Assembly: GCA_963813785.1 (NCBI GenBank)
Contig: CAWFAJ010000002.1
Coordinates: forward strand, 137,815 to 201,814
DNA length: 64,000 nucleotides
Direction of reading: 5' to 3'
From: an uncultured delta proteobacterium
GTDB taxonomy: Bacteria; Desulfobacterota; Binatia; Binatales; Binataceae
How positions within the stretch are numbered: the stretch's first letter is position 1; the number at the start of each line of letters is the position of its first letter. A program made the position numbers and the translations under genes. Of this stretch, positions 13,058 to 18,222 are shown one piece after another. The notes beneath the pieces are model-generated. The model saw only the letters and a program-made list of their open reading frames with translations. It made no database searches and was not told the origin of the DNA.

Positions 13058-13135
13058 TGGGGCTGTAGCTCAGTTTGGGAGAGCGCCTGAATGGCATTCA
13101 GGAGGTCGCGCGTTCGATCCGCGTCAGCTCCACCA
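13058..13135 (+). tRNA. tRNA-Ala (anticodon GGC) with encoded CCA.
   Basis: Cloverleaf read by hand: acceptor GGGGCTG/CAGCTCC with the G3:U70 Ala identity pair, anticodon loop ATGGCAT and T-loop TTCGATC. Ends are +/-1 nt. Confidence 0.85.
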
Positions 13136-13259: not shown

Positions 13260-14582
<1,323 letters not shown>

Positions 14583-14596
14583 TTACGACGCGGTTC

Positions 14597-14625
14597 TTGA
14601 CTCACCGGTCTCGTCGATACATTGA
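14597..14625 (+). promoter_or_regulatory. Candidate sigma70-type promoter (-35 TTGACT at 14597-14602, -10 TACATT at 14618-14623) that would put the TSS at the riboswitch 5' end.
   Basis: Hexamer match by eye. Spacer about 15 nt, so weak. Confidence 0.3.
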
Positions 14626-14630
14626 TGTTA

Positions 14631-14696
14631 GGCGCAATCGGTGATGGGGTTCCACCGCCAACCGCTCCCGCTTGAGTGAGCTGATGACCCCTACTG
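14631..14696 (+). ncRNA. Fluoride riboswitch (crcB RNA motif).
   Basis: GGUGAUGGGGUUCCACCGCCAACCGC ... GCUGAUGACCCCUAC matches the crcB-motif consensus: GGNGAUGGNGUUCNCC, a linker with AACCGC, and UGAUGRNNCCUAC with pseudoknot CCCC/GGGG. It sits in the 5' leader of a crcB operon. Confidence 0.75.
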
Positions 14697-14722
14697 GTGT
14701 TGAACACGGTAGGGGTTTTTTT
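14688..14722 (+). terminator. Intrinsic terminator and expression platform of the riboswitch (stem CCCCTAC...GTAGGGG followed by T7).
   Basis: GC-rich hairpin then TTTTTTT at 14716-14722. Its 5' arm is the same CCCCUAC that forms the aptamer pseudoknot. Confidence 0.65.
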
Positions 14723-14849
14723 AAAGGGCTCTACCGAAAGGTACAGGGTCCTTTTTTGATCGCCAGCAACTTGCAATCTGATACGCTTTCGGAAGAACGG
14801 TTTGCAAGGGCGCGCCTGCGCTTTCACGACGCCAGGAGGGCAGCGATCG

Positions 14850-16154
14850 ATGTTCACCGGAAGGGCTAAGCAGGTCACCATCTTTTTCGGCGAAACGGAT
14901 CAATACCATCACCAGGCGCTGTACATGGCGATCGTCGAGATGCTTCGGCGCGAGGGGTGCAGCGGCGCCACGGCGATGCGCGGAGTGGCGGGGTTTGGGG
15001 CCTCATCGCTGATTCACACGGCGACGATCCTTCGGCTGTCCTTCGATCAGCCAATCGTGATCACCGTTGTAGATCGCGCCGAGCGGATCGATCGCGTTCT
15101 TGGCCGGCTGCGGGAAATGGCTCCGAACGCCCTCATCACGGTTCAAGAGGTGGAAGTCGTTCAATCGGGAGTTCCCTTCAAGGAAGGTTTGCCCGACGTG
15201 AAGGTCGGAGAGGTGATGCGCCGCGAAGTCGCCACAGTGCATCCCGACAGCCCCATCACCCAAGTCGTAGAGCTGCTCCTGGACAAGGATTTTACCGCCG
15301 TCCCGGTGGTCGACAATGACGGAAAAGTGGTGGGCATGGTCAGCGACAACGACCTCCTGACGCGCGGCGGGATGAACGTCACGATCAGTCTGAAAAAGGC
15401 CACCGATCTGGATTACGTGCGCGAGCTTCACGAATCTCTGGAGAACGCGAACCGCAAAGTGTCGGAAGTGATGACGCGAGAGGTGGTGACGACTGCTCCC
15501 GACGCCCTTCTCGGACGAGCTGCCAAGCTCATGGTCGAAAAACATCTCAAGCGCCTACCGGTCGTGGATAGCGATGGAAAGTTGGTGGGCATCCTGGGCC
15601 GGCTGGATGTTTTGAACACGATCGCGGCGGTCCATCTGTCCGAGTGGCACCCCGAGGCCCGCAGCGCCGGCCCGGATGCGACGGTCGGCGACGTGATGAC
15701 ACGCGACGCTCCGAGCGTGCACGAATCGGCAACCATCGAGGAAGTTTTCGAGCGGCTGGTCTCGTCAGCCCACAAGCGGGTTGTGGTTATAGATGACCAG
15801 CGGCACGTCGTAGGGATTATCGCTGACTCCGATCTGATTTCGAAAGTAAGCCGCGAGAGTTGGCCGGGCGTGATGGAACTGCTGGTCTCCAAGGTCCCAA
15901 TTGCGAGAATCAGCGGACCCGCCCGCAAACTCATTCAAAGGCTCCATGCGCGGTTTGCCAGCGAACTGATGACGCGGGACGTGATCACTGTCCGCGAGAA
16001 AATGCCGGTTGTCAGCGCGCTTGCACTATCCGCGGAAAAGCGCGTCAAGCGCCTGCCCGTGGTGAACGCTGATGGCGAGCTGGTTGGAATCGTGGGGCGA
16101 ACCGAAATGATGCGGGCGCTGCTCGCTCGAAGCGAACAGGGAAAGGGCCTGTAG
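14850..16154 (+). CDS. Fusion protein: N-terminal DUF190 (PII-like, CrcB-associated) domain plus four CBS domains.
   Basis: MFTGRAKQVTIFFGETDQYHHQALYMAIVEMLRREGCSGATAMRGVAGFG... matches DUF190. CBS-pair repeats follow (VMTRDVITV, LPVVDSDGKLVGI etc.). AGGAGGG RBS 10 nt upstream of ATG 14850. Confidence 0.8.
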   Translation: MFTGRAKQVTIFFGETDQYHHQALYMAIVEMLRREGCSGATAMRGVAGFGASSLIHTATILRLSFDQPIVITVVDRAERIDRVLGRLREMAPNALITVQEVEVVQSGVPFKEGLPDVKVGEVMRREVATVHPDSPITQVVELLLDKDFTAVPVVDNDGKVVGMVSDNDLLTRGGMNVTISLKKATDLDYVRELHESLENANRKVSEVMTREVVTTAPDALLGRAAKLMVEKHLKRLPVVDSDGKLVGILGRLDVLNTIAAVHLSEWHPEARSAGPDATVGDVMTRDAPSVHESATIEEVFERLVSSAHKRVVVIDDQRHVVGIIADSDLISKVSRESWPGVMELLVSKVPIARISGPARKLIQRLHARFASELMTRDVITVREKMPVVSALALSAEKRVKRLPVVNADGELVGIVGRTEMMRALLARSEQGKGL

Positions 16155-16155
16155 G

Positions 16156-16530
16156 GTGTTGGCGCTGCTTCTGGTTGCGGTGGGCGGCGGCATCGGATCG
16201 GTGGCGCGGTATTTGGTCGGTGGCTGGTTTGCCGACCGCTTTGGTCCCGCGTTTCCGTACGGGACATTCGTGATCAATGTCACGGGAAGCTTCATCATAG
16301 GGTTTTTCCTGGCGTTCGCTCAGGAGCGGATATCACTCAGCCCCTACTGGCGCCTGTTTTTCGCCGTGGGCTTTGTCGGTGGCTACACCACATTTTCGAC
16401 TTTTGAGTACGAATCGGTTCGCTTGCTTCAAGACGGAGAGATGCTGCTGGGCGCGCTATATCTTCTCGGCAGTGTGCTCACCGGAGGTCTCGCTGCAATC
16501 GGGGGAATCGTATTGGGAAGCTGGGTATGA
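16156..16530 (+). CDS. crcB: Fluoride ion channel CrcB/Fluc.
   Basis: 124-aa four-TM protein with the GTFVINVTGSF and GGYTTFSTF motifs. GTG start 2 nt after the upstream stop. Confidence 0.9.
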   Translation: MLALLLVAVGGGIGSVARYLVGGWFADRFGPAFPYGTFVINVTGSFIIGFFLAFAQERISLSPYWRLFFAVGFVGGYTTFSTFEYESVRLLQDGEMLLGALYLLGSVLTGGLAAIGGIVLGSWV

Positions 16531-16692
16531 CCCAGCCCCGTCGCGGTTGACTGTAAAGGACAGCCCGTCGGAGTCAGCTAAGACTGGTGATAGGGTTTAC
16601 CGCCGTCCTTTCCTAAGCATGGCTGACGACCCCTACCGAGGCCGCAAGGCCGGTTGGGAGTTTTCGTTCAGTCGAACAATTTGCGCATCCCG

Positions 16693-18222
16693 TCATCCGC
16701 CGCTGGGAATGGGAGATGCGCGGACCGCGCGCTCGAACGCCCAGCTACGAATGTGATTGATCTGTTCCTTCATGGTGCGCGCCAGCGGAACCACCTCACC
16801 GGCGGCCATGAAGAGGTCCTGCTCGGTAACCTCATGCTCCTTCAGCCGCGCCTTGGTCAGCGCCGATACGACCGACTGCTCGACCTCGGCGCCGGTCCAG
16901 CCCTTCATAAAAGCCCCCAATCGTTCCAGATCAAACTTGGTGGTATCAATTCCCCGGCGGCCGAGATGAATCTTCAAGATTTCGATCCGTTCGGCAACCA
17001 GCGGCAGGTCAACGAAGAAGACCTCGTCGAAACGTCCTTTGCGAATCATCTCGGCGGGGAGCAGGTCGATTCGGTTTGCGGTGGCGGCGACAAAGAGCCC
17101 GCGCGCCTTCTCCTGCATCCAGGTCAGAAAGAAGGCGAAGATCCTGCCCTGCTCGCCCCCGGGTTCCCCCGAGGTAATTCCCATCTCAATCTCGTCGAAC
17201 CAAACCACCGCGGGCGCCATATCCTCGAGCGTCTTGCAGGCCTGGACGAATGCTCCCTCGGGCTCCCCATGCCTGCCGGAGAAAACCTCGATCATGTCGA
17301 TTCGATAGAGCGGAAGCTCGAAGTGCGAGGCGATGGCTTTGACGCAGAGGCTCTTGCCGCAGCCCGGGATGCCCATGACGAGAACGCCCTTGGGTACTAT
17401 GTCAGTGCTCAGGCTCTCGCGGAGTTGAAACAGTTTGCGACGCTCCAGCAGCCACTGCTTGAGCTTCTCCAGGCCGCCGACCTCGCCGATGCTCGTGCTG
17501 TCGGCAACAAACTCGATGACGCCGCCGCGGTTGACCAGCAGCCGCTTTTCCTCGAGCAGCGCCGGTAACGACTCGGGGCCGAGGGTTCGACTCGCCGCCA
17601 GAGCACGGCGCACCGCGTGGCGCGCCTCCTGAAGCGTGACTCCCTGCAGGGCGCGTGCGAGCTGGTGCAGGGTTTCCTCGCTCACCTCGGTGCTCACGCC
17701 GGGCGCCGAGAGTTGCTGAGCCTCGCTGCGCATAAGCTCGACCAGTTCGATCAGATCGGGCGGCCGCAACTCGATATATACAAGGTCCCGCTCGATTTCC
17801 TCAGGAACGAATCGCACCGGCGAACTGATGACTACGAACTTCCGTTGATCGAGACAGTCTTCGTACAGGTCTCGAAGACGGCGCCTGACCTCGGGAGATT
17901 CGCGCAGCGGCTCGTGAAAGTCCTTGAGATGGAAGATGGCGGCGTCCTTGTGGGCGGCGATGAAGTCCAGAGCTTCGCGAGGATCGAGAGTGCCGGCCTG
18001 GGCCACTCCGTCGTCGCGAAGCATTCCTTGCGTGAGGCTCCAGGTCCAAACCGGCACCGGTGTGGACGCGTGCAGCGCCCGGCCGACCTCGCGCAGCACC
18101 CTTCCGATTCGCTGCTCTTCGGCGGAGCGGATATAGGTCAGCGGCCGTCCCGACTGGAAGATCTCACGCAGCATCTTTGCCGCGCGGCTCTCGACAGACT
18201 GAGGTTTTGTAGAATCGTCCAT
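16693..18222 (-). CDS. AAA+ ATPase, Ycf46/SpoVK-like (N-terminal domain plus a single C-terminal AAA module).
   Basis: Walker A GIPGCGKS, Walker B VVWFDEIE, and an arginine finger region. The N-terminus (GRPLTYIRSAEEQR) resembles Ycf46-type proteins. Confidence 0.7.
   Translation of the reverse strand: MDDSTKPQSVESRAAKMLREIFQSGRPLTYIRSAEEQRIGRVLREVGRALHASTPVPVWTWSLTQGMLRDDGVAQAGTLDPREALDFIAAHKDAAIFHLKDFHEPLRESPEVRRRLRDLYEDCLDQRKFVVISSPVRFVPEEIERDLVYIELRPPDLIELVELMRSEAQQLSAPGVSTEVSEETLHQLARALQGVTLQEARHAVRRALAASRTLGPESLPALLEEKRLLVNRGGVIEFVADSTSIGEVGGLEKLKQWLLERRKLFQLRESLSTDIVPKGVLVMGIPGCGKSLCVKAIASHFELPLYRIDMIEVFSGRHGEPEGAFVQACKTLEDMAPAVVWFDEIEMGITSGEPGGEQGRIFAFFLTWMQEKARGLFVAATANRIDLLPAEMIRKGRFDEVFFVDLPLVAERIEILKIHLGRRGIDTTKFDLERLGAFMKGWTGAEVEQSVVSALTKARLKEHEVTEQDLFMAAGEVVPLARTMKEQINHIRSWAFERAVRASPIPSGG

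Follow-up and report, generated by a model that had tools for sequence, protein, structure and literature searches.

A fluoride riboswitch with an overlapping terminator and a second terminator-like hairpin precedes a DUF190-CBS fusion gene and crcB in Candidatus Binataceae

In an uncultured delta proteobacterium of the Binataceae, a stretch of 64,000 nucleotides (contig CAWFAJ010000002.1 of assembly GCA_963813785.1, positions 137,815 to 201,814 of the forward strand; hereafter the window) carries a fluoride riboswitch whose tail overlaps an intrinsic terminator (T1), followed by a gene that fuses a PII-like DUF190 domain to four CBS domains and then by crcB, the gene for the Fluc fluoride channel. 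An earlier note on the same DNA had proposed this arrangement, and it is supported by Rfam, by RNA folding, and by Pfam and NCBIfam profiles. Very probably the whole constitutes a fluoride-inducible operon of a Candidatus Binataceae type, comprising the switch, a putative relay from T1 to a second terminator-like hairpin (T2) and a fusion protein with a presumptive role in nucleotide sensing. The aptamer, T1, the domain content of the first gene and the order of the operon are present in the window and conserved across species. Riboswitch, terminator and crcB are textbook components, through which the known fluoride regulon now takes in Candidatus Binataceae as well.

The aptamer is well defined. 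A covariance-model scan of the whole window, for which the gathering score of RF01734 is 34 bits, found a single fluoride riboswitch above threshold, on the plus strand at 14631-14700, with 53.2 bits (E = 6e-12) over model positions 1-64 of 64, as expected if the leader holds the crcB motif that the note had recognized. The motifs GGUGAUGGGGUUCCACC and CUGAUGACCCCUAC and the AACCGC linker between them are all found in the leader, and the alignment of the window to RF01734 includes the P1 and P2 helices, the GAUGG.GUU loop, the linker and the CUGAUGA..CCUAC tail. Comparisons were made across 78 loci from a genome-collection scan profiled by tblastn, 45 with a full-length fusion and 33 with a stand-alone DUF190 gene. 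Orthologous aptamers score 39.7-57.5 bits in 20 related loci, and a pseudoknot pair that is G-C in the window is A-U in L024 and G-U in L004, L017, L018 and L034. The promoter box TTGACT stands at constant spacing 5' of the aptamer, amid diverged sequence, in 18 of the 19 leaders of this first riboswitch, and is absent in L005, whose aptamer has decayed. The candidate -10 boxes, TACATT at 14618-14623 (15-nt spacer) and ATTGAT at 14621-14626 (18-nt spacer), neither offer a clean assignment. A rule-based scan reported no promoter on the plus strand and no terminator, under rules that miss bulged stems and a 15-nt spacer; T1 and T2 are probably absent from its output because their stems carry bulges.

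The switch would act through T1. The CCCCUAC pseudoknot strand doubles, as the note had stated, as the 5' arm of a GC-rich hairpin followed by T7 at 14716-14722, and the segment 14684-14724 folds at -20.0 kcal/mol with z = -4.6, none of 200 shuffles being equally stable. The T1 hairpin is kept in relatives, in which its U-tract is often interrupted while that of T2 is intact; both hairpins have the form of intrinsic terminators, a stable GC-rich stem and then a run of U (U7 and U6, respectively). Transcription would begin a few bases before 14631, from the promoter with the TTGACT -35 box. Without fluoride, the aptamer 3' tail CCCCUAC is expected to pair with GGUAGGGG, so that T1 forms and transcription ends at U7; in the presence of fluoride, which this riboswitch class binds as a Mg-F complex, the tail would be locked in the aptamer pseudoknot, T1 would not form and transcription would go on. 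A fluoride response of this particular switch is thus a prediction from its sequence. The read-through messenger RNA would then yield a soluble protein, PII-like at its DUF190 end and AMPK-gamma-like in its four CBS domains, and, probably by translational coupling, the Fluc/CrcB channel that exports F-. That the riboswitch acts instead mainly on translation or RNA stability, as the leader of about 127 nt from the T1 U-tract to the start codon might allow, is very improbable given that a strong U7 hairpin overlaps the pseudoknot strand, that the Shine-Dalgarno sequence lies about 140 nt from the aptamer and that no conserved pairing to it is predicted.

Transcriptional fluoride riboswitches such as the Bacillus cereus crcB leader (PMC8752731) share with the window a full aptamer, a pseudoknot strand that is also the terminator 5' arm and a position, as ON switches, ahead of an exporter gene. 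The window differs from them in having a second conserved terminator-like hairpin, with a 5' arm complementary to the T1 3' arm, and in that the first gene under control is a DUF190-CBS fusion and not the exporter. The description of the leader as a classic antitermination platform accordingly stands for the overlap of aptamer and T1; the second hairpin makes the leader more complex than that description allowed.

The identity of the first regulated gene is equally clear. PF02641 (DUF190; Pfam cutoff 23.4 bits) matches residues 8-103 of the fusion protein with 112 bits over profile positions 2-97 of 97, and PF00571 (CBS) matches four stretches with 197.6 bits, in agreement with the domain content read by the note. 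The P-II profile PF00543 gives 25.1 bits against a cutoff of 25, a borderline match that overlaps the stronger one to DUF190. Comparison with solved DUF190 structures gave E = 2e-20 for 2DCL (PH1503) and E = 8e-11 for 1O51 (TM0021); these two hypothetical-protein entries are the only solved DUF190 structures, and the other solved matches are unrelated CBS proteins. No NCBIfam model covers the fusion as a whole, the model for the c-di-AMP-binding protein CbpB remaining below threshold (95.8 vs 125 bits), and an exact protein look-up returned no record identical to it. Full-length homologues of 77-94% identity, all with DUF190 and CBS domains and all under generic names, come from metagenome bins of Candidatus Binataceae or Binatus, the closest genome locus being L004 from a palsa-mire bin (94% identity). 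A search of 1.84 billion cluster representatives (50% identity) returned 241 clusters at E <= 1e-30, and among the best 150 of these about 100 align end to end, down to about 26% identity. Since so many clusters align over essentially the whole protein, the fusion is an old, broad and unnamed family and not a local accident; an assembly or frameshift artefact is ruled out by its presence at full length in hundreds of independent contigs. It is a widespread family whose function is undescribed, not a rare one. In the literature on DUF190, COG1993, UPF0166, PF02641 and PII-like proteins with crcB we found no functional study, with an earlier mention of the gene class being possible, and the suggestion that the fusion is uncharacterized thus holds. 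Among the genes of actinomycete fluorinase clusters, flJ codes for a DUF190 protein (PMC9173684), and a 2024 review of fluoride resistance makes no mention of CBS or PII proteins (PMC11139923).

Across a diverse alignment of 30 members the G-h-h-S/A-x-x-D motifs are kept and Arg251 and Arg417 are nearly invariant, the conserved positions of the CBS motifs being G162/D168, G247/R251/D253, G322 and G413/R417; nucleotide sites in CBS domains typically show such motifs and Arg residues. An AlphaFold2 model built from a 30-sequence alignment (mean pLDDT 82.9, pTM 0.68) has an N-terminal beta-alpha-beta-beta-alpha-beta domain with a disordered loop at residues 53-63, the place where PII proteins bear the T-loop, and then four CBS units. 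Foldseek comparison of the CBS block with the PDB gave overall E-values of 1e-20 to 1e-15, with MJ1225 (E = 1.6e-20), AMP-bound SSO3205 and AMPK gamma (about 1e-16) among the matches and target-normalised TM scores of 0.54-0.67 against four-CBS sensors; recently solved archaeal ribosome-bound CBS factors (Dri, SriA-D) are also matched. The fusion shares with AMPK gamma, MJ1225 and SSO3205 the four tandem CBS domains, arranged as two pairs in the same overall fold, and differs from them in being joined to a PII-like domain and in standing outside any kinase complex. In close relatives of the four-CBS block (P0204, P0260, P0224, P0237, P0175 and others) the place of DUF190 is taken by USP domains, singly or as a pair, or by a SulP anion transporter carrying a STAS domain, which identifies the block as a portable regulatory module.

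The association with crcB is close both in the window and beyond it. CrcB scores 105.6 bits with PF02537 (cutoff 32.9) and 103.1 bits with TIGR00494 (cutoff 80.45), is hydrophobic throughout and contains GGYTTFSTF. Its GTG start follows the end of the fusion stop codon by 2 nt, the distance given in the note, so that one base (16155) stands between them and translational coupling is likely. The view of DUF190 as a companion of crcB is borne out in that the next gene after the fusion is crcB in 37 of the 45 full-length fusion loci (the other 8 end too soon or are without crcB), and crcB is the immediate neighbour of the stand-alone gene in 30 of 33 loci. The N-terminal 105 residues of the fusion belong to the same family as the DUF190 proteins of these pairs (COG1993/UPF0166/PF02641) and are likewise paired with crcB; unlike the stand-alone gene, which follows crcB, the window's gene adds four CBS domains and precedes it. 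Six distant fusion members of 26-40% identity were also considered, three with crcB adjacent and one with crcB 3 kb away behind its own riboswitch. A 122-aa gene beside the distant member P0148 was considered as a divergent CrcB and rejected, as it encodes a soluble protein with no similarity. In 20 loci a riboswitch at or above threshold stands immediately 5' of the fusion, and in L043 and L046 one lies further upstream on the same strand; in L036 the fusion, without crcB, has a 55-bit fluoride riboswitch to itself. The riboswitch is present at no more than about half of the loci of the family, and 16 or more of the orthologous fusion loci have none at the Rfam threshold, so that the fusion is repeatedly, and not always, under fluoride control, which is therefore not obligatory for the family. 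In the Binataceae locus L053 (3842-4749), a DUF190 part of 75% identity is split by a frameshift and is followed directly, with the whole CBS block missing, by a crcB of 84% identity; the locus may hold a pseudogene or a natural CBS-less version, or reflect faulty assembly.

The second hairpin is the less ordinary part of the leader. T2 is found in most relatives, and its conservation was assessed by per-sequence folds and by counting the named structure across 15 leaders, in which 84.9% of cells are paired and three pairs are changed on both sides; RNAalifold did not recover T2 from MAFFT alignments, in which indels misalign its arms. The T2 5' arm AAAGGGCUCUACC is complementary to the T1 3' arm and U-tract, and the alternative hairpin that these would form is predicted at -13.4 kcal/mol in the window (z = -5.0, 0 of 200 shuffles as stable) and at -22.7 kcal/mol in L011. 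Barring the tail's first ten bases from pairing, which mimics the fluoride-bound pseudoknot, was applied to the window and 17 other leaders, and it moved the minimum-energy fold from T1 plus T2 to the alternative hairpin in 10 of the 18 (the window and nine others). These folds are compatible with a predicted four-segment attenuator in which 1:2 is T1, 2:3 an antiterminator and 3:4 T2. In such a relay the T1 3' arm, once freed by fluoride, would pair with the T2 5' arm, both terminators would be disabled together, and polymerase that leaks past T1 without fluoride would be halted at T2. The trp leader attenuator likewise consists of four segments in a row, whose 1:2, 2:3 and 3:4 pairings exclude one another and of which 3:4 is the terminator; it differs from the window in that segment 1 would here be captured by a ligand-bound pseudoknot and not by the ribosome, and in that 1:2 is here itself a terminator. 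A double-terminator leader is a plausible variant of the riboswitch, and from the folding models we put the chance that the T2 relay is real at roughly even.

Several observations weigh against the relay. T2 shows little covariation, since 30 of 500 shuffles score as high as the real alignment, and duplexes between the T1 3' arm and the T2 5' arm show no specific signal, with -8.1 kcal/mol within a locus and -7.6 kcal/mol between loci. T2 persists in the blocked folds of four of the 18 leaders (L010, L013, L017 and L024), with a further four ambiguous, and in the window T2 alone (-15.3 kcal/mol) is slightly more stable than the alternative hairpin, so that a relay would depend on the order of co-transcriptional folding. 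The closest relative, L004, has lost T2, and L019 (3850-3910) has a T2-like hairpin and U-run 5' of the fusion gene without any aptamer, where it may have a riboswitch-independent role or be a tolerated relic. The complementarity of T1 and T2 could also be left over from a duplicated terminator. It is thus a serious possibility, if somewhat short of an even one, that T2 is free of riboswitch control altogether, whether it acts constitutively as a fail-safe terminator, stabilises the RNA or is left over from a duplication of T1, with the complementarity incidental. A constitutive terminator behind an ON switch, however, would cut expression without a better induction ratio; the marked stability of the alternative hairpin and its success in the majority of blocked folds also argue for the relay, as does a UCCCUAC box that follows the second riboswitch of relatives, described below, in ten of ten cases and pairs with the terminator 3' arm in seven of ten blocked folds.

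The most likely role for the fusion protein, by analogy with other PII-like and CBS proteins, would be to sense nucleotides, adenylate or a related ligand, as a partner of Fluc or in the fluoride response. This reading draws on the portability of the CBS module, on the pairing of PII proteins with transporters and on CBS-regulated transporters: GlnK-AmtB and SbtB-SbtA are PII-type proteins encoded beside the transporter they regulate, and CBS modules regulate ion transporters. The fusion resembles GlnK and SbtB, as an analogy only, in that its small PII-like domain includes a flexible segment (53-63) like a T-loop and its gene lies beside that of a channel; its neighbour Fluc differs in being a dimer and not a trimer. 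The two-fold symmetry of the Fluc dimer and the trimeric state of PII-like proteins leave no obvious symmetry match for a GlnK-like plug, a point against such a plug. As an alternative ligand c-di-AMP is a candidate worth testing, because of the sub-threshold CbpB match and because PII-like and CBS folds both serve as c-di-AMP receptors.

A different and less likely possibility, which we nonetheless take seriously, is that the DUF190-CBS protein senses energy state or stress in general, in the manner of a USP-type or AMPK-gamma-type module, and is co-expressed with crcB without acting on the channel, and that it protects or regulates, for example, fluoride-sensitive phosphoryl-transfer enzymes or translation. 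The joining of the closest four-CBS modules to USP domains would suit such a sensor, as would the presence of AMPK gamma and ribosome-binding factors among the nearest folds and the orthologous loci that have no riboswitch. Two of the six distant members also showed no crcB nearby. Enolase, a fluoride-sensitive enzyme (PMC11139923), is moreover a conserved divergent neighbour. Set against a general sensor are the very tight adjacency to crcB, in both gene orders and in distant lineages, the single base between fusion stop and crcB start in the window, and the direct joining of a four-CBS module of the same type to an anion transporter. We thus favour for the fusion a role in partnership with the channel or the fluoride response. 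A bolder proposal joins both ideas: the fusion would serve Fluc as a regulatory subunit, the first to become known, and would be expressed behind a relay-coupled two-terminator platform. In that full form the proposal is unlikely; its protein part would have the PII-like protein sense adenylate state, c-di-AMP or a Mg-F-nucleotide through its CBS domains and so gate or tune export.

Table 1. Positions of the elements of the fluoride locus and its borders within the window
Feature	Position	Strand	Details
Enolase gene	13260-14570	-	TIGR01060 eno, 641 bits; divergent from riboswitch promoter
-35 promoter box	14597-14602	+	TTGACT; fixed distance from aptamer in relatives
Aptamer (crcB motif)	14631-14700	+	P1 14640-14643/14653-14656; P2 14664-14667/14679-14682
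Aptamer pseudoknot	14646-14649 with 14688-14691	+	GGGG with CCCC; complementary strands
Terminator T1	14686-14722	+	5' arm includes CCCCUAC 14688-14694; U7 14716-14722
Predicted alternative hairpin (antiterminator for T2)	14707-14736	+	T1 3' arm and U-tract CGGUAGGGGUUUU pairs with T2 5' arm AAAGGGCUCUACCG
Terminator-like hairpin T2	14723-14757	+	U6 14752-14757; -15.3 kcal/mol, z = -3.45
Shine-Dalgarno sequence of fusion gene	14834-14839	+	AGGAGG
DUF190 (PII-like) + 4xCBS fusion gene	14850-16154	+	434 aa; DUF190 about 14871-15158; CBS about 15192-16142
crcB (Fluc fluoride channel)	16156-16530	+	124 aa; GTG start; stop TAG of fusion 16152-16154
Decayed second fluoride riboswitch and terminator relic	16577-16664	+	RF01734 16.6 bits, E = 0.25 (match 16577-16642)

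Downstream of crcB the window retains the remains of a second fluoride riboswitch. The relic aligns base by base with the intact copies of relatives, from which it differs in the loss of the AACCGC/P2 segment, in GAUAG for GAUGG and in an altered terminator 3' arm; the hairpin region 16620-16680 still folds at -26.1 kcal/mol (z = -3.35), with the 5' arm again CCCCUACC. An intact riboswitch of 44-51 bits with its own terminator directly follows crcB in L005-L008, L010, L014, L015, L017, L034, L044 and L048, and the genes behind it encode either NuoH/NuoK/NuoL-like subunits of the hydrogenase-4/formate-hydrogenlyase type or a Na+/H+ exchanger with USP; Na+/H+ antiporters and formate hydrogenlyase are among the genes associated with fluoride riboswitches (PMC11139923). 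The window lacks those genes, and what comes next is a convergent gene for a 509-aa AAA ATPase. The relic now probably serves only as an operon-end hairpin. It is scarcely credible that it still works as a fluoride riboswitch, controlling for instance antisense read-through into the convergent ATPase gene: P1, CUGACGACCCCUAC and a terminator-like hairpin are retained, and its counterpart in L004 still has a score of 35.3 bits, but the window's element lies far below the 34-bit threshold, the segment it has lost is essential, and no plus-strand gene follows, the open reading frame at 16654-17568 (+) lying inside the AAA gene on the other strand.

Decay has also run in the opposite direction. 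In L005 (3780-3913) and in L041, which has the same sequence, the riboswitch 5' of the fusion is degraded (GAUGAG, CUGGUGAAC), sub-threshold and without TTGACT, and the one behind crcB, at 47 bits, is intact; in the window the situation is reversed. Beyond the terminator of the second riboswitch, by about 20 nt and between diverged flanks, the invariant UCCCUAC box mentioned above occurs in L005 (5840-5850), L006, L007, L008, L014, L015, L017, L034, L044 and L048; it is complementary to the terminator 3' arm and is transcribed after the termination decision. A long hairpin is predicted in the 5' untranslated region between the second riboswitch and the first gene in L005 (5810-5855), L006, L007, L008, L034 and L048, its sequence differing by locus, and this may be a further structured element.

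On the other side of the operon the divergent enolase arrangement is kept in nine related loci. Control of enolase by the riboswitch was considered and rejected, as the gene is on the opposite strand and upstream. A tRNA-Ala (GGC) gene at 13059-13135 (+) lies between recN and enolase; in the closest relatives, L001-L003, ilvD also lies between these two genes, which indicates local rearrangement beside the fluoride locus. Related Binataceae loci include fluoride islands with several riboswitches, up to four RF01734 matches per 9 kb (L017:128-7687; also L006, L007, L010, L034 and L042), the additional riboswitches lying on the minus strand beyond enolase and, in L042, preceding hyf-like genes as identified by eye. 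Behind the minus-strand riboswitch of L006, L007 and L034 is a gene of about 585 aa that, judged by eye, presumably encodes a GTPase of the dynamin type, and we know of no such GTPase among the genes associated with fluoride riboswitches; the genes in the same position in L010 we take, again by eye, to be inorganic pyrophosphatase-like and MutS-like. Taken together, RF01734 elements in related loci precede Na+/H+ antiporter, USP, pyrophosphatase-like, MutS-like and hydrogenase-4-like genes.

As the switch and the channel are ordinary, the leads of value here are the DUF190-CBS partner and the two-terminator design. If the relay is real, the leader would represent a previously undescribed double-terminator platform, in which one aptamer governs two tandem terminators and the tightness of the OFF state is multiplied; a simple ON riboswitch would in this way tighten its OFF state without a second aptamer, which would be useful for engineered fluoride biosensors. 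DUF190 is among the most consistent neighbours of crcB, and its fusion to CBS domains, standing first in an operon predicted to be induced by fluoride, points to nucleotide sensing coupled to export. The fusion provides a concrete protein to pair with Fluc, the regulation of which is left undescribed in the review of fluoride resistance (PMC11139923). Should it prove to be a regulatory subunit of the channel, a function would be gained for the DUF190 family, including flJ of the fluorinase clusters. For Candidatus Binataceae, an uncultured lineage of soil and peat, the locus means that the fluoride regulon reaches there as well.

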